64,000 nucleotides of DNA from Patescibacteria group bacterium (GCA_041649155.1 JBAZNP010000001.1:366564-430563); one strand, 5' to 3'. Shown: positions 1 to 22,190, counted from the first letter of the stretch. A program made the numbers and translations. Notes: generated by a model from the sequence alone, not told the origin.

Positions 1-83
1 TAAAAGGCAAAGCTAAAAACTTCTTTTCGAAAGAAGCAAAAACTGCCATCGTCGCTTTTATTCTGGAGTGGTGGTGGGCTATT

Positions 84-950
84 TTGTTAGTAATTTTAAT
101 AATTATCGGCGGCTTTTTGGCATTCAGCTATTTCTTTGGCAATGCAGGCAGAAGCCCGAGTGAAACCGGCCAAAGCATAGTGCAGGCAGCTGATCCAATT
201 AAAGATAAGGCAATGATCCAGAAAGTTCTGGCGTTGTCAGGAAACGGAACTGTCAATAGTCAAGAGCTACAGCAATTGGCGGATGAGCTGGAAGCAATCA
301 AACAATATGCGGACGACAGCACGGACCAGAAAATTGACGTATTGATTAATAAAATCCAAAAATTTAATCAGCTTAACAAACAAAACGGTACAAGCATTAT
401 TAGTTCCCTCAAAGAAATCGTAAGCGAAATTAATGGATGCGTTGAAGTGGCGACAAGTGACTTTTTTAAGTTTGCTTATAACGAAGATGAAGATACTAAA
501 AAAGAAATTTTAGCAGACAAGCTTAAAAGACAAGATGGCCAAACGACACAGCTCGACAAGAGAATTTGTCGCTTACTAGTTACCATTGAAAATAACAAAG
601 AAGCCATCGGAATAAATGACGTCTCAATAACAGCTTTAGTTGATCATAAGGTTTACTCCGGGACCAGAACACATGCAAATGGCAGAGCAGTTGACCTTGA
701 CTGGAGAGATGATAACGACACCAAGATAATTAAATGGATTTTTAATAATTATGACAGCTTAAAACAACAAGGAATCGCGCCTTATGAGGTGAAAGAACCG
801 TTCACTCAATATTTAATTGCCCAAGATGGCGCATTAAAAGGAAGTGACGCTCTCAGTGCAAAAGGGTTCGACAAATCGTCCTTACAGAACCATGGATGGA
901 CTGAATCCGGTACCGTTGGGAGCAATAGCCATATTCACATCGATATTTAA
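84..950 (+). CDS. N-terminally membrane-anchored protein with LAS/peptidase-M15-like zinc-binding signature (SGTRTHANGRAVD = SxHxxGxAxD; C-terminal HIHID). Frame is open to the window edge, so the true start may lie upstream of the window
   Basis: ORF 84-950 (TTG at 84; no in-frame stop back to nt 3). Lys-rich segment then hydrophobic helix. Motif seen by eye. Stop is 2 nt before the giant ORF start. Confidence 0.5.
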   Translation: MLVILIIIGGFLAFSYFFGNAGRSPSETGQSIVQAADPIKDKAMIQKVLALSGNGTVNSQELQQLADELEAIKQYADDSTDQKIDVLINKIQKFNQLNKQNGTSIISSLKEIVSEINGCVEVATSDFFKFAYNEDEDTKKEILADKLKRQDGQTTQLDKRICRLLVTIENNKEAIGINDVSITALVDHKVYSGTRTHANGRAVDLDWRDDNDTKIIKWIFNNYDSLKQQGIAPYEVKEPFTQYLIAQDGALKGSDALSAKGFDKSSLQNHGWTESGTVGSNSHIHIDI

Positions 951-952
951 TT

Positions 953-3900
953 ATGAAAAATTTTCTAAAAAATTTCTTAATCCTAACTATATGTTTTTCC
1001 ACTACTTTTGGGAATTATTTTGCATTTTTCACGCCCCAAAAGACATCAGCCGCAGAAACAACCACAGCAAAACAGGGTGATGGAGAGGCTTCGGAGACAC
1101 CGGATGATAGCAACTTGACAGACAAAGAGACTATCCCCATAGAAGCACAAACTTTAACACAGCATGTTTATAATAGCCAGATTAATACAAATGGGTTTGA
1201 GGATATTAATGACTTGTTTGCTTCTTCTTCAGACCCTAAAATCATTCTTAACGCCGATGATGCTTCTGCCGTGCGCTCACTCTCCTGCATGTCTTCTCTC
1301 ATACCGAACTTTGCGACTAATACTAAAAAACTTTTTGAAATTTTGCCCTCTTCTTCAAGGCCAAGTACCGAGGCAGAACTTTCTGCACTTAAGCTTAGCA
1401 ATTCTGATAAGTTTTATAGTCTGGTCTCACAAGCACAGAATATCTGGTACGAAAATAATGAGGGCTTTATATTAAATGACATGAGCACTTTGGAATGTTT
1501 ATCAGGTCTTTCTGCTAACGAAATTGTTGATTTAAGGGCAAGAGATCCACAGCAGTTAACAACAATCATCAATGATTCAAAAGAATCTCTTACAATCGAC
1601 ATAAGAGTCTTAAAAACACTAATCTACTTAGTCACCCCAAAAAATCAAGGTGGTGCCGGCCATTATAGAATAAAGGTAGCGCGCATAAGAACTGGTTACA
1701 CTTCAAAATCAAGGCAAACTTCCAGAGAGTCAAATTATATAGTGGATCAGCTCAACAGCAGCACTACAACAACCACAAGCAGCAGTGATCTTTCAGGGGA
1801 AACAGCTGCCGAAATCGGGATGAATCGGGACATCAGCAGTTCAGACTCATACGACTTAGACGGAACAAACGCAACAGCAATTGTTGAAGACGAAAATGGT
1901 GATGAGTATGATGCCTATATTAATGATCAGCTTCAAAATGAAGATGAATCTACCGATAGTAGCACAAGTAGCGATAAAACTGAAAAGAATATATCAGCTC
2001 ACTCTGAAGGAAAAGCTATTGATATCTCAGAAGTAGATGATATTCGATGTACATTAATCGAGAGAAAAAGAGTCGGACACACTAGCAAAACCAGTTATTC
2101 CCAAAGACCGATTAAACTAGCATGGCAAACACAAGAAGGCTATGCTGAGTCCGGAGGATATGACGGAGGCGATCTAGGCCAACTTTTTAAAGAATCTGCG
2201 TCAGACGAGATTAGAAGTCTGATCGAAGAACTGGGCGGAGATCCAAGTAATTATGATGGAGATCTTTCACAAGGAAACTTTTCCGACATCGTTCAGGTGA
2301 TAGGAAAATCATTATTCTCTCAAATTATCAATTCCCCTTCATCTAATTTCTCCGGTTACGATTTTCAAGATACTTTGCAAAAAATCGGCAGCGTGTATTT
2401 TGCTGATTTATTAGGTCTAGAAAAAGAAATTTTTGTAGATCAAGATATCACTTCCCTAGATGATCTTCAAAGAGTTGTTGGGCAAGCAGCGCTAGAAGAA
2501 CGCTTAAATCTTCCTTTCGGGACATTTACCGGCGACACGCTCGAAGACACTCTTCTAAATATCGGTCAGAGAAAAATTGAGTATGAAATGGGGCTAAATT
2601 CATCTTCTCTCAACAGTCTCTTAAATGACAATACGCAAAGTCTGCCCTTGATAGTCGGGGAAGCAGCAATAGAAAAAGCCCTTTCATTAAAAGAAGGATC
2701 TTTCACCGGCAATAGTTTCTCAGAACTCAAAAAGAATGTGGGTGAGATTAAAGGAAAAACGATATTCATCGATACAACCTATCCAGATAACATTCTCCAC
2801 CTTGACTCGGGGACAACAAACAAATTAGTATCCGGACAATTAAGCCCTATCGCCTACACAACGCTAGTTGGGCAAACAAGACTTGATGATACTGCATATG
2901 GATTTAAATATTTGTCGACCCATGAAAGTGCCTATAACTTACCGGAAGGCACTTGGTCCAATGCACTCTTGGGCAAAAAAGATGCCCTAAAAACCATCGG
3001 CGTAAATACGATCTCTAAAGCCTTTGCGACAGACGATGAACAACGGACTGCAATGGAAAAATGGCTCATCAGCAACACAGCAAAAAATTCGGATGATGAT
3101 TGCACCATAAACCTATATCCCGAAGTAAACATCACTGTTAAGGACGAAGATAAAACAGTTGCGATACTCGAAGATAATGCAATCGAAGCCGGGCTAGCTA
3201 CAGGAGATTTTTACAAAATGTTCGGTTGCGCAAAATCAAATCCGGCAAGCGTTTTTGAAAAAACCGGCAGCAAAATCCTTTATTATGCACTAGCCAATTA
3301 TGATTCAAGCTCAGAAGAAAAATTTAAGATTGATCTTATGGATACCAATTCGGAGTATAAACTTTTACAAAATGATCAGCTTGAATTTTATCTGCCCAGA
3401 ATTCAGGAAATGAATACTACTACAAACCGGATTACTAGTAACTGGGAAGACCAAAGTTCACAGTTAGATTATCAGCCTATCATGGCTTCTCTAAGTCATA
3501 TTAAAAGTATCGTCGGGGACTCAAAATATTATTCAAACAAAAACACTATCCAAACTGCCTCAAAAAAAATATCAATTGAAATTGGCATCTTAAAATCCAT
3601 ATTTGAAAAAGATCAAAAAGAACATCAGGAATTAAAAAATAAAATTAATTCAACACACATAGACATCAACAGGCTAACAACCTTATCAAGCGAAATACTA
3701 GAAGGAAGAATAGTCCCGTCAACTGAGAATATTCAATTAAGCCAAATACCCGCTTCAGGGCTTACCAGCGATGCCGAGCAGTACAGCGAATCTTCTTCAG
3801 CGTCAGGAAAAACAGGCAAGGTCGGCATAATGCTTCTCCTTGCAAGAAAAATCGATCCTAAAGACTTCTTTTTGTCCGTCGGAACGGACAAAACCGAGAC

Positions 3901-6900
3901 TGAGCTTAGTTTGCCTCAAAATTCACTTTATTATTACGTGCAGAATTTGGAGAAAAAGGGATTATCAGGTCAAGACGCTTTCTATCAATCGATCGGACAA
4001 GCCAAAATTGAAGAGGAATTCGGTATGCCTAGCTTCTATTTCCAAGGGTCTCTCTATAAGATAACCGACAAGCCAGATTTCCAGAACGATCTGGACTCGT
4101 TAATGAAATATAATGGATTCAACCAAGATGATAAACTCTATGATTCAACTAAAGACTATATTTTTCAGGCCAAAACAAAGAATGTAGGGGTATTTAACTA
4201 TTATGTTCAAAAAGCCGAAAACAAATACAGTGAAGGGCTCGCTAAGTATAAAAAAGAAATCAATACTGAAGGAAGCAGCAAAGTAGTCGAGAGCACCCTG
4301 AATGACCTGATTACAAATGTTAAAGCAAACGGATTAACCGACGGAATACGTTCGGCAGAAAATGATTTGCTATTTAGAATGGGAATAGCAGGAAATTTAC
4401 AATCCCTCATGAATGATAGTCCGATTGCCTGGAGTACAGCGAATAAGACCGCCAGTGAAATCGACAAGAAGCTATCTCTCGAAGACGGAACCACTAGATC
4501 TCTGTTTACCAGCAGCTTCGTCCCCTTAAACGACGGCAAAGACATTTTAGGTGAAAATGATAAAAAGATTGTTTCCGGCAAACTAGAAATAACAACAAGC
4601 GCAATCAATAAATATCTGGAAGCTTTAAATGGGGATATAGACCCAGATGATCTCACAACAGCAGGCCAGGAAATAACCTATAACTCTTCTAACCCCTACG
4701 CAGCAAAAACCGATGCTTCCACAGATAACTTGTGTACCAGCTTGTTTAATGCCAGCGACAACGGGATCTCCTTGTCAAAGCAATTCGTAAATGATTCTTT
4801 CTGGTTCAGAGACAAAGACGGAATAGTATTTGCCCAAAATCAGGAAAGCGCAAAACAACTAAGAGACCAAAATTCTGACAAAAAAATTACATTTCTAGAG
4901 GAAATTGCCATTGGATTAGCGAAAGTAACAGGGAAAAGCCAAAGTGAAGTTCAGAACGCTTTGTTGGCTTATCTCAAAAACGGCGGTCAGAAAACTCTGT
5001 TCAGCTTTTCTGACGAGCAGTACGAGGCGATGGAGAAAAGTTCAGGCATACCAAAAGACATTCTTCAGAAATTATTTGTACGTCAAAACGCTACCCAAAT
5101 CAACAATTCTCTCTCAGCTTACAAAAAAGCAGTCGGCCAAAGCACAGCTAAAAAAATTATAAATTATAAACTTTTCCAGGGACTAGGGGTGAGTCTAGAC
5201 TCTACTTCATTTGATTCTGACAGCCTATACGAAATAATGAACGGAAATTACAAACCTTTGTATGACATCGGGGCATTATTGATTGATAAAAAATTAAATC
5301 TGCCGACAGGAACGATCACGGATATAACTACGGCCAGCACACAAAAAATGAAAACCTGTGCTTTGGCGGAAGCCGGCGGCGGTATGCTGGGAGGATTAAT
5401 CGGCCTGAACTATGTATCAATGAAAGGCGACATCAGAACAAATCTCGGGCAATCAGTGATAGAAACAACTTTGAACTTGCCGCGAGGCACTTTTAAAGGA
5501 AATTCTCTCGACGAACTAGTTAAGAGCACTTCTCCCGTCAACTTTGTGCTCGGCTTCCAAATTCCAATAGAAGGGGTTGTGTCCAGCGATATAGTTCAGG
5601 GGATATTTGGCACAACTACTGCCAAAATGTCATCCAGCGACATTACTGACACGATGAAACTTAACCAAATTAAAAATTATCTTGAAGTAAAAAGTCTGTT
5701 ATCGAGCTCTGAAAGTAAAGCTGTCTCTAATTTAGACAACAAACTTGAAAGCCAAATCAAACTCATATCAAGCGATTCCTCTAAATGGACTACCAATTTT
5801 CAAAATCGTGTTAAGTTTTTGGACAACATCCTCGGGCTATCTGCCGACACGACAAAAAATATGCTTACGGGGGGGATCAGCCCGAATGCTTATCTGGACA
5901 TGGCAGCAGGCAAGTCGCTTCAAGGCATAGCGGCTCTTAACGTAATTAATATTTTCGACTTAGAAGAATACCAAAGTGCAGCAGCGATGAACTTGGTTAG
6001 AAACTTCGGATCGATGATAACCAATGGACAATATAATGATATCTACTCTTCTCTATCAGATGTATTTAATGTCAACTTGGACGCAAAAGCTGGATTTACC
6101 AAAGGGACAGCCTCTAATGTATTGGGAGACCCAAAAAATGCAGCAAAAATACTTCTGGCAGAAGGAATAAAAAAAGTCGACCAAAGTTTGGGCTTAGACT
6201 CAAATAGCGACACCTCCTTAACCAAGTTATATGATTATCAGCAAACAAATCTTGAGCAATGCAAGGCATCAATTTTACAACCAGAGCAAGAAGCTGCGCT
6301 GAAAGACGAGGAAATCCAACTTAAATTGCCAAACTTGACCACAAATAATGATGCGAGATTAGCCGAGATATCAAACACAAGATCCACCGCTAACCAGAGC
6401 TACAATGATTGCAAAACGCAATCCATAGAAGAAGCCACAACTTCATCCCATCTCATATTCAGAACTGCAGTGAACGATAAAATTTCATCCGCAATATCCA
6501 ACAAGATTTCTGAAATTACACAGGGCACTATTATTATGCCGAAAGAAGATGTCAGCAACTTCATTAAAAACGGCGATATGAAATATTTCGAAACAATAGG
6601 ATTGGCATATGCAGCAAACATAGTATTAAACAAAGCGGGCAATAACGAACTTGTGCCTCCAGGGATGAGGATAACCTATAAAGATTTATATCTGGCAACT
6701 TTCGGCGATAGAAACGCTGAAGCAAGTGCCGGAGATGCAGCTGTTTACGCCGATGTAAACAATATAACCTACTCTGACTTCAATACTCCGTACAGATACG
6801 GCGACGTTTGTGGCACGCTTGGAAGCATAGGTTGCCTTAATGCTGATAGCTACTTGAGCATGGATTCTTCCAGTGCATTGCCTCGAGACGAAAGTCAACT

Positions 6901-8431
6901 TGTGGCAGCTAATCAGGCTTCGACAAACGCTATGTACGGCTACAACCCAAGTGACGCGGCTACTGTTAGCACTGCTAGTTCCAAATACCAGACCAAATAC
7001 GGAGACAATCTAACTATCGCCAATAGCGATCAATGTAAACAGGATCCAATGTCTGAAACATGTCAAAAAGCTGCAGGCGCTTTAACCAATCTTAACAGTG
7101 TAAAGGGTGAAGCACGACAAAAATCGAGACAAACTTTTATCGACGACCTAAAGTACAAAACGACCGACGCTCTTCTCTGGAATCTTGATAAGAACGTCTA
7201 CCCCGGACTTAGTTACGCCCTCTTAAGGGGAGATGCGACAGTAAAGCAAAACGCTATGGCCAACTACATACGAAACGGCATTATGAGAGGGGAACTTTTT
7301 GGCATCGATATTAGTTCTAGATTAAAAAATGTCGGGGAATGGATTAACACTTATGATACTTTTTCCGATCTTACATCAGCAGTATCAAACGGGGGGTTAG
7401 ACAGCTTTTTCCAATCAGGCGGCGGTTATACTGCTCTTAATGACTTCGTCAACAATAACTCAAAGAACTGGTTTGGCTTTGATATGCCGGAAAATATGCT
7501 TGGAGGCTTGACCGTCGGTTTATCTACGGGCGTTTGGGACGCTAGCAAATTAGACCTCTCAGATTCAAGACTTATTAAATTTGATGGAGGGATTTATAAA
7601 GGCACAAACGGTAAATTACAGATACCTACCATGACCCAGATTGGCAAAAATTTACTGAACGATAAAATAACAGATCTAAAAAATGGTTTGGAAGGTAAAT
7701 TGTTCTCTTGGACCGACAAAATTCTTGGATGGGACTCAGGAACGGCTTATCAAACATACCAAGCATATGAGAATGTTCAAAAAGCCAGAGAAGCATATAT
7801 AAACATTAAAGATATTTCTGGAGCAGCTAAAGCAAAAGCAGCAGCAGATTATGATGCAGCCAAAGCTCAATTAATTACATTCGTAGTCACTACAGTTTTT
7901 TCAAAACAGATAGCTGCAGCAGAAGAATCACTTGGTTTGGTTTCAGGGACAGGCTCAATGCTTGCAACGATGCTTATCACTGGTTTCAACCCCATAGGCT
8001 TGATTACGTTTGTCGGAATGAATTTATTTATGGTTTATAAGGTAGAGCTAAAATGTAGCGCGGATGGTTATTATCCAGAAATGCAGGCCGGAACTTCTTC
8101 AAATGTGGTTGATGTAACAGGATTGGGAGTATGGAACGGGATGAGTCAAGAAACCTCAAAAAAGAAGTCCATTGAAGCGGCCCAGTATAAAGCAAGCCGA
8201 TTGATCGGAGACGTACTGTCAATGCAGGACAGCCCTAAATACGCCGACGTAATTCCAAGTCAGATTATGACTGGACGACAAGAGGATGTTGATTTATGGG
8301 ACCCTGCAATCACATATTACCTATGCTCAAAACTCGGCAACACTTCTATAAAGGGAATTTGTGGAGGAAATACAAGAGCTGGAGTGTGGGAGAATCCACA
8401 AACAGTAGCTCTGACACATATAGGATTTTAG
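953..8431 (+). CDS. Giant (2492 aa) secreted/surface protein. N-terminal signal peptide, Ser/Thr/Asp-rich low-complexity segments, internal LNLPxGT repeats, an SAHSEGKAID (SxHxxGxAxD) motif, and two C-terminal TM helices followed by a Cys-containing tail
   Basis: Single uninterrupted 7479-nt ORF. Signal-peptide-like N-terminus MKNFLKNFLILTICFSTTFG. Hydrophobic helices near residues 2290-2340. Terminator hairpin plus T-run at 8578-8604. Confidence 0.75.
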   Translation: MKNFLKNFLILTICFSTTFGNYFAFFTPQKTSAAETTTAKQGDGEASETPDDSNLTDKETIPIEAQTLTQHVYNSQINTNGFEDINDLFASSSDPKIILNADDASAVRSLSCMSSLIPNFATNTKKLFEILPSSSRPSTEAELSALKLSNSDKFYSLVSQAQNIWYENNEGFILNDMSTLECLSGLSANEIVDLRARDPQQLTTIINDSKESLTIDIRVLKTLIYLVTPKNQGGAGHYRIKVARIRTGYTSKSRQTSRESNYIVDQLNSSTTTTTSSSDLSGETAAEIGMNRDISSSDSYDLDGTNATAIVEDENGDEYDAYINDQLQNEDESTDSSTSSDKTEKNISAHSEGKAIDISEVDDIRCTLIERKRVGHTSKTSYSQRPIKLAWQTQEGYAESGGYDGGDLGQLFKESASDEIRSLIEELGGDPSNYDGDLSQGNFSDIVQVIGKSLFSQIINSPSSNFSGYDFQDTLQKIGSVYFADLLGLEKEIFVDQDITSLDDLQRVVGQAALEERLNLPFGTFTGDTLEDTLLNIGQRKIEYEMGLNSSSLNSLLNDNTQSLPLIVGEAAIEKALSLKEGSFTGNSFSELKKNVGEIKGKTIFIDTTYPDNILHLDSGTTNKLVSGQLSPIAYTTLVGQTRLDDTAYGFKYLSTHESAYNLPEGTWSNALLGKKDALKTIGVNTISKAFATDDEQRTAMEKWLISNTAKNSDDDCTINLYPEVNITVKDEDKTVAILEDNAIEAGLATGDFYKMFGCAKSNPASVFEKTGSKILYYALANYDSSSEEKFKIDLMDTNSEYKLLQNDQLEFYLPRIQEMNTTTNRITSNWEDQSSQLDYQPIMASLSHIKSIVGDSKYYSNKNTIQTASKKISIEIGILKSIFEKDQKEHQELKNKINSTHIDINRLTTLSSEILEGRIVPSTENIQLSQIPASGLTSDAEQYSESSSASGKTGKVGIMLLLARKIDPKDFFLSVGTDKTETELSLPQNSLYYYVQNLEKKGLSGQDAFYQSIGQAKIEEEFGMPSFYFQGSLYKITDKPDFQNDLDSLMKYNGFNQDDKLYDSTKDYIFQAKTKNVGVFNYYVQKAENKYSEGLAKYKKEINTEGSSKVVESTLNDLITNVKANGLTDGIRSAENDLLFRMGIAGNLQSLMNDSPIAWSTANKTASEIDKKLSLEDGTTRSLFTSSFVPLNDGKDILGENDKKIVSGKLEITTSAINKYLEALNGDIDPDDLTTAGQEITYNSSNPYAAKTDASTDNLCTSLFNASDNGISLSKQFVNDSFWFRDKDGIVFAQNQESAKQLRDQNSDKKITFLEEIAIGLAKVTGKSQSEVQNALLAYLKNGGQKTLFSFSDEQYEAMEKSSGIPKDILQKLFVRQNATQINNSLSAYKKAVGQSTAKKIINYKLFQGLGVSLDSTSFDSDSLYEIMNGNYKPLYDIGALLIDKKLNLPTGTITDITTASTQKMKTCALAEAGGGMLGGLIGLNYVSMKGDIRTNLGQSVIETTLNLPRGTFKGNSLDELVKSTSPVNFVLGFQIPIEGVVSSDIVQGIFGTTTAKMSSSDITDTMKLNQIKNYLEVKSLLSSSESKAVSNLDNKLESQIKLISSDSSKWTTNFQNRVKFLDNILGLSADTTKNMLTGGISPNAYLDMAAGKSLQGIAALNVINIFDLEEYQSAAAMNLVRNFGSMITNGQYNDIYSSLSDVFNVNLDAKAGFTKGTASNVLGDPKNAAKILLAEGIKKVDQSLGLDSNSDTSLTKLYDYQQTNLEQCKASILQPEQEAALKDEEIQLKLPNLTTNNDARLAEISNTRSTANQSYNDCKTQSIEEATTSSHLIFRTAVNDKISSAISNKISEITQGTIIMPKEDVSNFIKNGDMKYFETIGLAYAANIVLNKAGNNELVPPGMRITYKDLYLATFGDRNAEASAGDAAVYADVNNITYSDFNTPYRYGDVCGTLGSIGCLNADSYLSMDSSSALPRDESQLVAANQASTNAMYGYNPSDAATVSTASSKYQTKYGDNLTIANSDQCKQDPMSETCQKAAGALTNLNSVKGEARQKSRQTFIDDLKYKTTDALLWNLDKNVYPGLSYALLRGDATVKQNAMANYIRNGIMRGELFGIDISSRLKNVGEWINTYDTFSDLTSAVSNGGLDSFFQSGGGYTALNDFVNNNSKNWFGFDMPENMLGGLTVGLSTGVWDASKLDLSDSRLIKFDGGIYKGTNGKLQIPTMTQIGKNLLNDKITDLKNGLEGKLFSWTDKILGWDSGTAYQTYQAYENVQKAREAYINIKDISGAAKAKAAADYDAAKAQLITFVVTTVFSKQIAAAEESLGLVSGTGSMLATMLITGFNPIGLITFVGMNLFMVYKVELKCSADGYYPEMQAGTSSNVVDVTGLGVWNGMSQETSKKKSIEAAQYKASRLIGDVLSMQDSPKYADVIPSQIMTGRQEDVDLWDPAITYYLCSKLGNTSIKGICGGNTRAGVWENPQTVALTHIGF

Positions 8432-8550: not shown

Positions 8551-8823
8551 CTAGTTAGTATTAACTATTCTTAAATTTCGGACGATCTTTCGTCCGATTT
8601 TTTTATTGAGATAATCTATCAAATCTTCCGACAGCATTTGTAGCTCCGAAGCCTCAGAAGAAGACATCGCAGAAACCTTTAAAACGCCCCCAGAAAAAGA
8701 AATTGGGGCTACAGACATCTTGCCCCAGTTTTCAACATAAAAACAAATCTGGGCGCTTTCTGTGGTCTTGGCGAGGCCCTTCTTTGCCAGACTTGCCCTT
8801 AAAATTTTATCTAATTTTTCCAT
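8551..8823 (-). CDS. DUF721 (YaaB/RemB-like) small protein typically found next to recF
   Basis: 90 aa. Pattern ...W..M.V.P.SF.GGVLKV...SS.A.ELQ... and position immediately downstream of recF. Confidence 0.55.
   Translation of the reverse strand: MEKLDKILRASLAKKGLAKTTESAQICFYVENWGKMSVAPISFSGGVLKVSAMSSSEASELQMLSEDLIDYLNKKIGRKIVRNLRIVNTN
8578..8604 (+). terminator. Rho-independent terminator for the giant gene (tcggacga-tctt-tcgtccga + T7). Lies inside the convergent DUF721 coding 3' end
   Basis: Perfect 8-bp stem, 4-nt loop, run of 7 T. Confidence 0.55.
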
Positions 8824-8873
8824 GCTTGCTATTAGAAACTAGTTTATTTAAATATAATCTTACTGCTCGCTCT

Positions 8874-8903
8874 GTCATTCCCGCGAAGGCGGGAATCTAC
8901 TAA
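8874..8903. repeat. Short hairpin repeat, family H (gtcattcccgc-GAAG-gcgggaatctactaa)
   Basis: Perfect 8-bp stem with GAAG loop. Same unit recurs at 13766, 14114, 14162(inv), 25108(inv), 42044. Confidence 0.7.
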
Positions 8904-8999
8904 TGGTAAAAACTATCTTGTATCCACGGGCCATGGCGTTGCCTGCCCGAGGATGACGCAAGAAGAAAGGTTCGCCCCCAGCCCTCCACCCTCTGCCTT

Positions 9000-10073
9000 C
9001 TACTCTCTACTTGCTTTAATCTCAATAACTTTTGATTTTTTTAATAATTCCGGCGATAGATGGTCTGCTTCTGTTGAAGTAATTAGAGTTTGATACTGAG
9101 ACACAAGCTCGCCTAAGTGAGACCGCCTCTCCGGATCAAATTCAGAGAAAATATCATCCAAAAGAAGTATTGGTTTATCCATATCTTCCCCCGCTGCTAG
9201 ACCTTGTTCTTTAATTTTTTCCATATATTTAAGCTCAGAAATCTTCAGTGCCAGAATAGCAGATCTAATTTCTCCCCTCGAGGCAAAATTAGCCATGTTG
9301 CGGCCGTTCAACTCAAATACTACATCATCACGATGCGGGCCAACAAGGGATCTTCCGGAAGATATTTCCCTATATCTAAGTCGGTCTAAAACATCAGCTA
9401 AATCACCTTCAAAATTCTGACAATAAATCATTTTAAGATCCGCACCAAAATCACCAGAAATAGATCTGTAAAGATCAGGTAAAAATTCATTTATTTCATC
9501 AGCAGCCTTTTTTCTTCTCTTAATTATCAACTCTCCAAACTTGACCAGCTCCTTATCCCAAAAACTCATCTCCTGCTCGCTTGCCTGTCTTTTATTTATT
9601 CTTTGTAATAAATTATTTCTCTGTTGTTTAACTTTTTTATAACTGACTAAAGCTTCTAGATATTCTCTATCAACCTGACTTATCATTACGTCTAAAAATC
9701 GGCGTCTATCTGAAGGCGAACCGGAAATTATCGAAATAGTCTCTGCAGAAAAAACAACTGTGGGTAAAATTCCGACAAAGTTAGACAATTTTCGAACCAC
9801 TCCTTTTTCTTTAGCCTGCATGAAAAGGCGCGGCGTTCTGGTTAAAAAAATTTCCAGATTGTCCCCGCTTATTCTCGCATAATCAGAATTAAAATTAATC
9901 AAATTTTTCTTGTCATCTTCGCGAAATGAACGGCAGAAAGAAAGTAGAGCCACTGCCTCTAAAATATTACTTTTGCCAGCGCCGTTTAGCCCGACTAAAA
10001 CAGTGACCTGATCAAAATCAATTTCAAATTTCTGATGATTGCGAAAATTTTCTAGTTTAAGTCTTTTAAACAC
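9000..10073 (-). CDS. recF: DNA replication and repair protein RecF
   Basis: N-terminus MFKRLKLENFRNH...VLVGLNGAGKSNILEA (Walker A). 357 aa. Synteny dnaA-dnaN-recF. Confidence 0.9.
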   Translation of the reverse strand: MFKRLKLENFRNHQKFEIDFDQVTVLVGLNGAGKSNILEAVALLSFCRSFREDDKKNLINFNSDYARISGDNLEIFLTRTPRLFMQAKEKGVVRKLSNFVGILPTVVFSAETISIISGSPSDRRRFLDVMISQVDREYLEALVSYKKVKQQRNNLLQRINKRQASEQEMSFWDKELVKFGELIIKRRKKAADEINEFLPDLYRSISGDFGADLKMIYCQNFEGDLADVLDRLRYREISSGRSLVGPHRDDVVFELNGRNMANFASRGEIRSAILALKISELKYMEKIKEQGLAAGEDMDKPILLLDDIFSEFDPERRSHLGELVSQYQTLITSTEADHLSPELLKKSKVIEIKASRE

Positions 10074-10110
10074 AGCTTACCAAATTCTAAATTGAAAATT
10101 TTAAATTAAT

Positions 10111-19777: not shown

Positions 19778-20968
19778 TTATTGAAAAATACTTTCAATTA
19801 TTTTCATTATTCCTATTGCTACACCTATAACAATTACTCCTATAACCGACCATAGAAGAGTTTTTTTGGCCAGTTCAGCCTTACTCTCCTCTCCATAGGA
19901 AGTTAAATAAATTATTGATGCATACAGTATCATTATAAAGGCAACCACTGCACTAATGTCAAGAAGCCAGCTGATCAAAGTCGTTACCATGCAAAGAATT
20001 TGATCTAAATCTTTCTTTGAGCTACAGGTGTTAAGAAGATTCTTGATATTAAAGTTGTTTAAACCAGAAACAGAAACAGCTTTAGCGTCACTATCGTTTG
20101 TGGCGACTTCCGCTACTGTAACCTTATATTCGGTATGATTATTATTAGTCCCTAAAACGCCGGGATAAACCTCCACGATAATTGTGTGAGAACCTGTATC
20201 GGTGCCGCCTGTGTCCCATTCTACTGTGACAGGTACATTGTCATCCGGCACAGTCCCAGATCCTTTTAAATGGTCATCTGTATTTTGATCGATATAAACT
20301 TTATAAGTCTGCCCTTCTAGATCAAAAAATTTGACCTTTATGCTGGCAGTATCCCCTTTTTTGACATTATTCGTATCGGGTGTTATGACAATGCCTTCAG
20401 TTTCAGCAATATCAAAGTTGTAGTCTTCGATTTGAAAGTTAGAGCAATTCCTAACCTTGTCATCTATAACAAACCTTAAGTCATAATTGCCTGCTGAACC
20501 ATAATCGCCAGCATTAATCGGCTTTGGAATTGTGAACTCTCCAACGCGATCTTCTTCCGGTCTAATGACGCCGTCGGCTATTAATTTATAGACGCTTCCA
20601 GATTGAGGATCATCCTGACCGTTCCATAGATAAATTCTATAATTATAGATTACCTGATTTGTTCCAAGAGGATCCGCATTTGAACCGTTGCTTTTTTTGC
20701 CCAGCACTGCTCCAGTTTTGTATTCTGTATCTTCGGGTTGCTTGATTTCATAGGCGACAGTTTGTCCAGCAAAAAGTTTTCTGGAGTCTGGAAATTGAAC
20801 AGTAATATCAAGATCTTCCGTTACGGTGCAGGAAGAGTTAAAAGAGGTATCGGCGTCTTCAGCAAAAACTTGCGACGAGTTAGTAAGAGAAAGAGTGTAA
20901 ATTACAGAAAATATAAAAGAAGCAATCAGAAATCCAACGTAAGTAAATTTTATTATATTTTTTTTCAT
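19778..20968 (-). CDS. Secreted protein with about 300-aa N-terminal ectodomain fused to a C-terminal pilin-like module
   Basis: Signal peptide. C-terminus ...VAFIMILYASIIYLTSYGEESKAELAKK...VIGVIVIGVAIGI. Confidence 0.6.
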   Translation of the reverse strand: MKKNIIKFTYVGFLIASFIFSVIYTLSLTNSSQVFAEDADTSFNSSCTVTEDLDITVQFPDSRKLFAGQTVAYEIKQPEDTEYKTGAVLGKKSNGSNADPLGTNQVIYNYRIYLWNGQDDPQSGSVYKLIADGVIRPEEDRVGEFTIPKPINAGDYGSAGNYDLRFVIDDKVRNCSNFQIEDYNFDIAETEGIVITPDTNNVKKGDTASIKVKFFDLEGQTYKVYIDQNTDDHLKGSGTVPDDNVPVTVEWDTGGTDTGSHTIIVEVYPGVLGTNNNHTEYKVTVAEVATNDSDAKAVSVSGLNNFNIKNLLNTCSSKKDLDQILCMVTTLISWLLDISAVVAFIMILYASIIYLTSYGEESKAELAKKTLLWSVIGVIVIGVAIGIMKIIESIFQ

Positions 20969-20975
20969 TATTGTC

Positions 20976-22190
20976 CTATTTCGGGCCGCTCCAAAAGTTT
21001 GCTGCGATTGTTTGTATGGTTAAAGATAATGTTGCGGCCACAATACCAATGATGGAGTACATTAGTGCTTTTTTTGCTTTTTCCGCTTTGGCTGTGTCTC
21101 CGCCTGCGGTTATGTATTGAATGCCGCTTATCATAATGCCAATAAATGCTAAAACTCCGATTGCCCATTCGAGCAATTCTACTATTAACAAGGCTAAGTC
21201 CCCGATTCCATTGATTTCGCTATGGAGAGGAAAGCCCGATGCTAATTTTGCTAAAACAGTAGAAAAATTATTCGGAACTGTTAATTTATCCGTGTCTGTG
21301 CTGCTTCCCTCTGACCCAGGAGTTTGTCCTTCGCTTCCTGAAATGTTTACGGTTATTTCTGCTTGACCTGTCATCGGGCTATCTGTGCCGGCATCAATGA
21401 AAGTCTTTATCCTGACTTTATGATAAATACAAGTTTTTTCTTGCGGCGACCAGGGCATTTCTATATAACCTGACGCCGGATCTGGATCGGCGGATATTAT
21501 TTGAGCATCCTGCATTTTATCGATATAATTGCCGGCGCAGTCTGTAATCCAAATATGGTAAACTTCATCGGCATGGCCGGAAAAACGATATTTTATCATG
21601 GTTGACGCATCAGTATTGTCAGTGCCATCAGAATTTTTAAGATTGATTGTTTCGGGATCAGCCGACAATTCAATTTCGCCATGCAGCGCAACAGCACCAT
21701 TATTAGTAAAGCTAAAGCTCTGTATCTGGTCTGATAAAACATTATATTTGCAACCGGTAGTTAGATTTTCATAACTTACCACTGCTTTATAGTCTCCGGC
21801 TTCACTAATCGGTATCACAACTGGGTTCGGGCTAAATCCGTTTGAAAATCCTGGTTCTGCCTCTCCGTATGATGTGTAAATATCATTTTCGTAATAATTA
21901 TTATAATTGTCGTAACCCACTTTCCTGATTTCGATTTTGTATTTTATCTTATTATTTATATCTAGTTTATTTAATGAGAGGGTAACTTTTTTTGTTACAT
22001 CTTCACTCGGTATTAAGGTGTATGTGGCTGGAGCTGAAGAATCGCAGGCAGCTTTAACTCTCATCGACTCATTAGGCGCGAAGAGATTTATTGCGGCAGC
22101 AATGAGTAGAGTAGTATTAAAAATTATTGCGAATGTTCCAATTGCAATAAGAGCGGAAGCGGTTCTTTTTACTATTCGATAATGTTTCAT
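20976..22190 (-). CDS. Secreted protein with about 320-aa N-terminal ectodomain fused to a C-terminal pilin-like module
   Basis: C-terminus ...LAFIGIMISGIQYITAGGDTAKAEKAKK...IIGIVAATLSL. 7-nt gaps to both neighbours (operon). Confidence 0.6.
   Translation of the reverse strand: MKHYRIVKRTASALIAIGTFAIIFNTTLLIAAAINLFAPNESMRVKAACDSSAPATYTLIPSEDVTKKVTLSLNKLDINNKIKYKIEIRKVGYDNYNNYYENDIYTSYGEAEPGFSNGFSPNPVVIPISEAGDYKAVVSYENLTTGCKYNVLSDQIQSFSFTNNGAVALHGEIELSADPETINLKNSDGTDNTDASTMIKYRFSGHADEVYHIWITDCAGNYIDKMQDAQIISADPDPASGYIEMPWSPQEKTCIYHKVRIKTFIDAGTDSPMTGQAEITVNISGSEGQTPGSEGSSTDTDKLTVPNNFSTVLAKLASGFPLHSEINGIGDLALLIVELLEWAIGVLAFIGIMISGIQYITAGGDTAKAEKAKKALMYSIIGIVAATLSLTIQTIAANFWSGPK

Follow-up and report, generated by a model that had tools for sequence, protein, structure and literature searches.

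At the beginning of a 64,000-nucleotide (nt) window from the genome of a Patescibacteria group bacterium (GCA_041649155.1, JBAZNP010000001.1:366564-430563; all positions are counted from the first letter of this stretch), two co-oriented genes code for a membrane-anchored protein, called here the partner, and for a giant protein of 2492 amino acids (aa). The Patescibacteria type IV secretion system (T4SS) cluster, of the monoderm conjugation type and situated near dnaA and the replication origin oriC, ends with these two genes. The pair was identified as T4SS genes because its gene context was constant across loci. As to function, we somewhat favor the reading in which the N-terminal domain of the giant is a diverged module of the LAS type (lysostaphin / D-Ala-D-Ala peptidase / Hedgehog superfamily of zinc peptidases) that would act on the cell wall.

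The T4SS gene cluster beside the replication origin

One genome per GTDB species was scanned, which produced 42 loci, 31 of them with enough upstream DNA. We found the same gene order in 31 out of 31 loci: the genes of a TraC-like protein, VirB4, a hydrolase (~400 aa), a PEGA protein, the partner and the giant. Across loci the partner gene directly adjoins the giant gene or overlaps with it. The initial annotation of this DNA had proposed to look for synteny of the pair in relatives, and the pair did show it; the T4SS context itself was missing from that annotation because the window starts inside the partner gene.

In the relative L001 (82-89% identical) a TrbL/VirB6-like protein (924 aa or more) and two small proteins are encoded first; a TraC-like protein, an ATPase of the VirB4 type, a Peptidase_M15_4 protein of 377 aa (E-value 3.9e-16) and a PEGA/beta-propeller protein come next, and the partner and the giant follow. 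The product of the gene that follows VirB4 carries an SLT or glucosaminidase domain together with, depending on the lineage, M15_4, Amidase_2, CHAP, C39-like or M74. Examples of the hydrolase gene located between the VirB4 and PEGA genes, among loci L002-L042, are L002 3506-4729, L010 4913-6193 and L005 1862-3196.

On the 3' side of the giant, the minus strand carries DciA, recF, dnaN and dnaA (8551-13362). Cumulative GC skew is lowest near 10-12 kb of the window, and the spacer between dnaN and dnaA (11215-11838, 624 bp) is AT-rich. Because of the DciA/RecF/DnaN/DnaA block and the GC-skew minimum, we place the replication origin directly beside the T4SS cluster. Across the origin from the giant gene, ~11 kb away, we found T4SS_pilin genes, two tandem open reading frames (ORFs) of ~400 aa each on the minus strand (19778-20968 and 20976-22190; Pfam E-values 1.8e-8 and 4.5e-9). 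The cluster as a whole has VirB4 with co-oriented VirB6/TrbL-like and TraC/TrsD-like genes, a wall hydrolase, proximity to dnaA and pilin genes. The T4SS of Patescibacteria has been described as kin to the monoderm conjugation machinery and as often lying beside dnaA (Quinonero-Coronel et al. 2025, PMC12102498).

The partner: a membrane-anchored scaffold with swapped modules

The window holds the C-terminal 315 codons and the stop codon of the 504-aa partner (3..950, plus strand); the gene begins upstream of the window. The translated fragment is 100% identical to residues 190-504 of the deposited protein P0001 (504 aa), which consists of ~215 charged low-complexity N-terminal residues, one transmembrane (TM) helix and an ectodomain ending in SHIHIDI. 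The size of 288 aa given in the initial annotation is an artifact of the window edge, because the reading frame has no stop from nt 3 onward and the TTG at 84 codes for a Leu inside the TM helix. An alternative genetic code was considered as the reason why the partner is longer than the ORF and was rejected, the window edge being the cause. The only TM helix of the partner (AIVAFILEWWWAILLVILIIIGGFLAFSYFF; 45..137, plus strand) has a Kyte-Doolittle maximum of 2.74. The partner stop codon occupies 948-950 and the ATG of the giant is at 953, so that the gap is 2 nt, as had been annotated.

The ectodomain ends with an M15-like module of 144 aa (516..947, plus strand). In this module we observed an H-x6-D motif (HANGRAVD, nt 672-695) and, five residues from the end of the protein, HIH (nt 930-938). 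The module thus has both the H-x6-D and the C-terminal HxH that characterize LAS/Peptidase M15. The terminal SHIHID noticed earlier was confirmed in this way; the full SxHxxGxAxD that had been claimed for both proteins was found in the giant (SAHSEGKAID), whereas the partner reads RTHANGRAVD, that is, HxxGxAxD without the Ser. The pattern H..G.A.D arose in 0.15% of shuffled sequences of the partner composition. In the six sequences that carry the module, H44, H53, G56, D60, H139 and H141 (module numbering) are invariant, and M15-like modules of the partner type end in H[IT]HIGF.

Partner orthologs are homologous across loci in the membrane-proximal part, and their C-terminal module varies. Among 35 ortholog modules, 23 were Peptidase_M23 (best E-value 2.6e-22), four were C39-like cysteine peptidases and six, the one in the window included, were M15-like; orthologs are located, for example, at L025 7845-9437 and L010 7590-9314. 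The orthologs with Peptidase_M23 (LytM/lysostaphin type) have the same N-terminal scaffold, operon position and module position, and M23 is itself a LAS-superfamily family with HxH. The partner in the window differs from them: it has H-x6-D, with G and A where M15 has them, in place of the H-x3-D of M23, and it has no M23 match. The partner is, therefore, a conserved scaffold, anchored in the membrane, on which the peptidase module changes from lineage to lineage, and not one half of an unusual pair of paralogs as was initially suggested. A role as a peptidase is likely for the partner because most relatives have a genuine LAS-superfamily peptidase at the same place.

The best Pfam match of the partner was Peptidase_M15_3 with E-value 0.033 and 14.8 bits, compared to a cut-off of 23.2, and it covered only the last 22 profile positions. 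For the six M15-like module sequences the best Pfam match, M15_4 with E-value 0.02, was also below significance. Nothing significant was found for the partner in NCBIfam, and nothing relevant for the M15-like module profile among PDB sequences. An exhaustive phmmer search with the partner module over 1.84 billion representatives returned nine matches, of which only two were true relatives, with no bridge to M15; six of the remaining matches were fn3, Ig, BACON, FG-GAP or ankyrin repeat noise, and one (P0069) was unscanned. Peptidases of papain-like or Gly-Gly type have been reported in Patescibacteria as fusions to one coiled-coil region that is anchored in the membrane (PMC12419801); these fusions may belong to the same family as the partner, though they are encoded in another operon.

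The giant protein and its family

The giant ORF (953..8431, plus strand; 2492 aa, as initially annotated) is identical to the deposited hypothetical protein P0003 of a Patescibacteria metagenome-assembled genome (MAG), and the organism is a reduced-genome Patescibacterium, as had been supposed. We collected 56 homologs with lengths of 2357-3160 aa, except for three partial sequences of 1762-2631 aa. All source-labeled homologs come from Patescibacteria, and the MAGs of these lineages are labeled Berkelbacteria, Saccharibacteria, Doudnabacteria or unclassified Patescibacteria. The full-length alignment was built from the 53 complete sequences, while the counts of the motif refer to the 55 homologs that include the N-terminus.

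The protein begins with a signal-peptide-like stretch (MKNFLKNFLILTICFSTTFGNYFAFFTPQKTSA, followed by AE; 953..1054), read from the sequence; the homologs likewise begin with a hydrophobic segment. The conserved N-terminal domain (residues ~205-400, nt 1565..2152), delimited by alignment conservation, contains a variable insert rich in Ser, Thr and Asp (residues ~262-345, nt 1736..1987), which was seen in the alignment and has an AlphaFold predicted local distance difference test score (pLDDT) below 50. Within the insert the alignment shows a conserved TAAExG and a hairpin-like xVxDxNGxxYxA. The motif SAHSEGKAID, of the LAS-type form S-x-H-x-x-G-x-A-x-D, follows at residues 348-357 (nt 1994..2023), with H350 and D357 as the putative ligands; it had been placed near residue 335. 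A regular expression search located the first copy of the repeat LNLPxGT at residues 518-524 (nt 2504..2524). Three exact and two degenerate copies start at residues 518, 577, 1174, 1448 and 1507, and the G-x4-E-x5-P columns that recur in them do not vary within the family. The initial annotation had already noticed the signal-peptide-like start, the stretch rich in Ser, Thr and Asp and the LNLPxGT repeats.

Near the C-terminus, the membrane region recognized by its hydrophobic segments (residues ~2296-2355, nt 7838..8017) is made of an amphipathic segment, a conserved E..lGLvPG loop and a hydrophobic hairpin or TM segment. The hydrophobic segments are present as annotated, but the number of membrane passes is 2 or 3 by sequence and not firmly two. 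The region is followed by a conserved tail (residues 2367-2492, nt 8051..8428) with C2368-ADGYYP, AAQYKA, PSQIMTGRxEDV, the cysteine pair C2458/C2470 and, at the extreme end, GVWxNPQTxxxTHIGF, in which H2489 is coded by nt 8417-8419. The tail had been called Cys-rich; it has only three Cys in 126 residues. An invariant tail motif, PSQIMTGRQEDV (residues 2434-2445, nt 8252-8287), resembles a degenerate S-x-H-x-x-G-x-x-x-D with Ile replacing His. It stands 44 residues ahead of the terminal His, and hhalign pairs it with the partner motif at a probability of only 6.8%.

The pattern S.H..G.A.D was found in 54 of the 55 homologs, at identities down to 26%, and it arose in just 0.065% of shuffled sequences of the giant composition. 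Since the motif is rare in shuffles and kept across the family, it is not a chance occurrence; a check of its conservation in orthologs, proposed initially, thus came out positive. The motif is conserved far above its surroundings. In the 53 sequences the most conserved 50-residue windows were 201-250 and 351-400, both in the N-terminal domain, together with 2401-2492 in the tail. The invariant residues of the N-terminal domain are D216, R218, LVTPK 226-230, GGAGH 233-237, E259, S348, H350, G353, A355, D357, D362, C366-T367 and PIKLxWQT 386-393.

Besides the motif, the His and Cys residues of the giant showed a distinct pattern. Out of 11 His, exactly three (H237, H350 and H2489) are invariant in the 53 complete homologs, and the others are conserved in at most 64%. 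Out of 17 Cys, C366 and C2368 are invariant (100%). Fourteen of the other 15 make sequence-adjacent pairs which are jointly kept or jointly lost, and C14 sits in the signal peptide. For example, both members of the pair 1261-1469 are present in 51 sequences and both are absent in two, with no mixed cases; for the pair 2458-2470 the numbers are 50, three and zero. Such paired gain and loss is what would be expected of disulfides in an exported protein. Because the remaining Cys either pair off or lie in the signal peptide, C366 and C2368 are the sole invariant unpaired ones.

All 53 complete giants terminate in H[IVL]G[FY]. The usual end is G[VL]WxNPQTxx[WYL]THIGF, with HVGF and HLGY as minor variants, and two divergent giants have a full terminal HxH, DHTHIGF in L034 and ADHIHVSW in L040. 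The spacing inside the motif is also loosened in divergent giants, to H-x8-D in L042 and to H-x13-D in L040.

A 1043-aa "mini-giant" was observed in L043 (2395-5523 of CAYPSR010000029.1). Its N-terminus is acidic, as in the partner, and carries the only TM helix; a giant-type domain (ISAHKDGKAVDISEIDYIY), LNLPxGS repeats and the end ...NIHFAY come next, and the C-terminal TM hairpin is missing. Because the anchor is N-terminal and a membrane segment at the C-terminus is lacking, the two ends of this protein are in one compartment. Its length would allow structure prediction of the whole chain.

Assignment of the giant N-terminal domain

The LAS fold has a central antiparallel sheet that carries the metal ligands. 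The first zinc-ligand motif is H-x(3-6)-D, in M15 typically S-x-H-x-x-G-x-A-x-D, and the third zinc ligand, a His, and a catalytic His or Glu (HxH or ExxH) are located downstream in the same domain. With the M15/LAS enzymes (VanY, VanX, LdcB, phage L-Ala-D-Glu endolysins and the Hedgehog N-domain) the giant shares the motif at all five defining positions as well as the H-x6-D spacing, and the partner shares H-x6-D and the C-terminal HxH. On the other hand, ~85 residues are inserted in the giant between the motif and the conserved block upstream of it, and the downstream His/Glu motif is missing. For comparison, where the giant reads NISAHSEGKAIDIS, the cluster's own genuine M15_4 hydrolase has LSSHAFGLAIDIN.

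We scanned 38 giant N-terminal domains singly against Pfam (24,736 families). The best E-value for a LAS family was 0.008, which is below all cut-offs; the recurring sub-threshold matches were to Extensin-like_C (in four members), Peptidase_M15_2, M15_3, M15_4 and VanY, which we take to be one Pfam clan. Hence, the motif region of the giant, on the level of sequence, is more LAS-profile-like than anything else, and this falls short of domain homology. The LAS-type motif proposed initially is then real and conserved and has weak M15/VanY-type matches, but a significant family match is missing: the proposed profile searches for M15, VanY and Hedgehog gave nothing at the Pfam cut-off for either protein, and searches of PDB sequences came back empty. 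A word-index homolog search with the giant domain alignment returned only three fragments. The hhalign alignment of the giant domain with the partner module was restricted to 21 motif columns, with a probability of 52%, and on these grounds we rejected the earlier view of the two motif domains as paralogs.

Could the motif have arisen by convergence? The fold of the N-terminal domain would then be unrelated to LAS and might serve, for example, metal-dependent self-processing or the docking of a T4SS subunit. No formal homology or fold test succeeded, and the likeness to the partner module is confined to the 21 columns, which speaks for such an origin. We nevertheless regard convergence as improbable: the ten-residue motif fits the LAS signature at five of five defining positions, the weak matches cluster on one small group out of all the Pfam families scanned, and the neighboring genes code for peptidoglycan hydrolases that include the LAS families M15_4, M74 and M23.

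Several observations weigh against the reading of the domain as a diverged LAS-type module. The giant in the window had zero Pfam and zero NCBIfam matches; the profile of its N-terminal domain matched nothing among PDB sequences, and PHROGs had nothing for either protein. The hhalign probability of the giant domain against the M15_4 proteins of the cluster was 8%, with an underpowered alignment of four sequences; against this alignment all queries scored 0.1-8%, including the partner module, which aligned collinearly. AlphaFold2 models reached a mean pLDDT of 55 for giant residues 168-425 and of 52 for the ortholog domain with the shortest insert (P0028, 164 aa), and Foldseek found no matches with the two low-pLDDT domain models. 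No conserved His is present between D357 and H2489 in the 53 giants (H376 is only 6% conserved), and H237 is replaced by Arg in the divergent homolog L042. The upstream T4SS genes are known from L001 and from more distant loci, as the window begins inside the partner gene. Finally, the cluster already encodes two other wall hydrolases, and for this reason a third catalytic one is not obviously needed.

The initial annotation had named as its refutation the lack of both a significant profile match and fold similarity to LAS peptidases. By this yardstick the LAS assignment of the giant is not demonstrated; it is based on the motif, its conservation and the gene context, and the structural tests were uninformative rather than negative.

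The position of the third ligand deserves attention. Since no conserved His lies past D357 in the N-terminal domain, the canonical HxH/ExxH is missing there, and the second His ligand that the initial annotation proposed to look for is absent from this domain. The invariant H237 was a candidate for the third ligand; the Arg of L042 at this position weakens it.

We also considered a composite zinc site, in which H350 and D357 of the N-terminal domain would be completed by H2489 of the last strand (...THIGF-COOH), with the site assembled outside the membrane. A disulfide between C366 and C2368 could lock the termini, and the ~1900-residue middle would be a long loop or a stalk. The H2489 context looks like the last LAS strand, which is precisely the element that the N-terminal domain is without. 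The strict H[IVL]G[FY] end of the 53 complete giants, next to the H[IT]HIGF end of the partner-type modules, agrees with this idea, and so does the terminal HxH restored in L034 and L040. Furthermore, no conserved His occurs from D357 to H2489, the two unpaired invariant Cys are distributed one per part, the two ends of the mini-giant share a compartment, and the isolated N-terminal domain had no confident AlphaFold fold. Still, the hhalign probability of the tail was 6.8% against the partner module and 0.1% against M15_4, Pfam scans of 29 tails returned no M15 family, and three membrane passes would make the tail cytoplasmic; the AlphaFold failure is explained equally well by a shallow alignment of ~40 sequences, and invariant residues yield no covariation signal. 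On balance, a site composed in this way from the sequence of both termini seems doubtful. The tail profile matched nothing relevant among PDB sequences; its weak match to the Pvc3 sheath protein (E-value 0.085) is probably due to chance.

Missing ligands could also mean that the domain is of LAS descent and lost catalysis, in which case it would attach the giant to the wall as an adhesin or as an anchor binding peptidoglycan or metal. The absence of HxH/ExxH from the domain fits this possibility, as do the W, Y or L that stand in nearly all giants for the first His of the terminal HxH, the relaxed spacing in L042 and L040, and the two dedicated hydrolases already in the operon. However, the S, H, G, A and D of the motif together with E259, D362 and C366 are kept at an overall identity of 26%, a constraint that exceeds the one usual for binding only, and we think that such a pseudo-enzyme is quite unlikely.

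Possible role of the pair

We return to the reading with a diverged LAS-type module. A cell-wall role appears to be the most reasonable one because the neighborhood is full of peptidoglycan hydrolases. Conservation, synteny and the peptidase modules of the neighbors were observed.

The partner would be a bitopic protein with a cytoplasmic acidic N-terminus, one TM helix, a coiled region outside and a peptidoglycan peptidase module at the outer end, which would be M23 in most lineages and M15-like, HxxGxAxD...HxH, in this lineage. The giant would be exported via its predicted signal peptide and held in the membrane by the C-terminal hydrophobic segments, so as to have ~2300 residues outside and to present a long ectodomain containing LNLPxGT-type repeats. 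Its N-terminal domain, as a diverged LAS-type module, would hold the first half of the LAS zinc site (S348, H350 and D357), could bind metal and might recognize or cut peptidoglycan peptide stems. Jointly, the giant, the partner and the SLT/M15_4-type hydrolase may enable the secretion apparatus to cross the cell wall, either its own or that of the host. The host attachment or remodeling of the host wall that had been proposed initially was neither supported nor contradicted by these observations, which do not discriminate between the two walls. In this scheme the LAS fold, the metal binding, the substrate and the target wall are what we infer.

Comparison with known systems

Already known were the T4SS cluster with its LAS-type hydrolases and its location near oriC. 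The T4SS described by dnaA in Patescibacteria (PMC12102498, PMC10633639) shares with the present cluster the VirB6/TrbL-like, TraC/TrsD-like and VirB4 genes, wall hydrolases directly after VirB4, the PEGA protein, the end against recF-dnaN-dnaA and VirB2-like pilin genes nearby. In Southlakia epibionticum, VirB4 is followed by a 1114-aa Hedgehog/DD-peptidase protein, a lysozyme/Cys-protease protein and a PEGA protein (Wang et al. 2023, PMC10633639); Table S1 of that study marks all of these genes 'ES' (essential) in its essentiality columns. In that cluster (SEML1_0004-0019) the 1114-aa protein, SEML1_0007, with its Hedgehog/DD-peptidase domain, is in a comparable position. The cluster differs, however, in having no protein of 2400-3100 aa, and its LAS domain is C-terminal and was recognized by structure-based annotation.

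What is new here is the giant family, the strict N-terminal half-motif, the invariant C-terminal His strand and the modular partner. The giant family, its half-motif and its THIGF end are undescribed in the searched text and tables of PMC12102498 and PMC10633639.

Wall hydrolases are common in conjugation systems of monoderm bacteria, where PrgK of pCF10, TraG of pIP501 and CwlT of ICEBs1 have the role of VirB1. These proteins are likewise membrane-anchored or secreted multi-domain wall hydrolases encoded in the T4SS operon, and they combine a glycosidase with a peptidase module, as does the VirB4-following gene here. They have from a few hundred to ~900 residues with clear SLT, CHAP, NlpC/P60 or M23 domains, whereas the giant is at least three times larger and its candidate catalytic domain, unlike theirs, escapes all profile libraries.

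Epibiotic growth depended on the T4SS in the only species of Patescibacteria tested, and the role of this system was called "completely unknown" in a 2024 perspective (PMC11665869). With the giant, the T4SS of the represented lineages gains a very large and strongly conserved predicted extracellular component, in which the three invariant His and the two invariant Cys are obvious mutational targets. If the giant domain is active on peptidoglycan, it would be a candidate for the step of breaching the wall, own or host's. If the split site is true, the T4SS-associated giant would have the unusual architecture of a LAS-type module built from its two termini; the C366-C2368 disulfide would close a loop of ~2000 residues, and wall cutting could be coupled to the extension of the secretion apparatus through the assembled and open states of the site.

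Other features of the window

Beyond the dnaA block, YidC and a PilB/T2SSE ATPase are encoded on the plus strand (14878-18381). In both T4SS_pilin ORFs the T4SS_pilin domain is C-terminal; they resemble VirB2-like pilin paralogs with unusually long N-terminal extensions. A terminator-like hairpin on the plus strand (8578-8597), found by pattern match only, has eight pairs followed by a T run and is situated ~150 nt past the giant stop codon, inside the convergent DciA.

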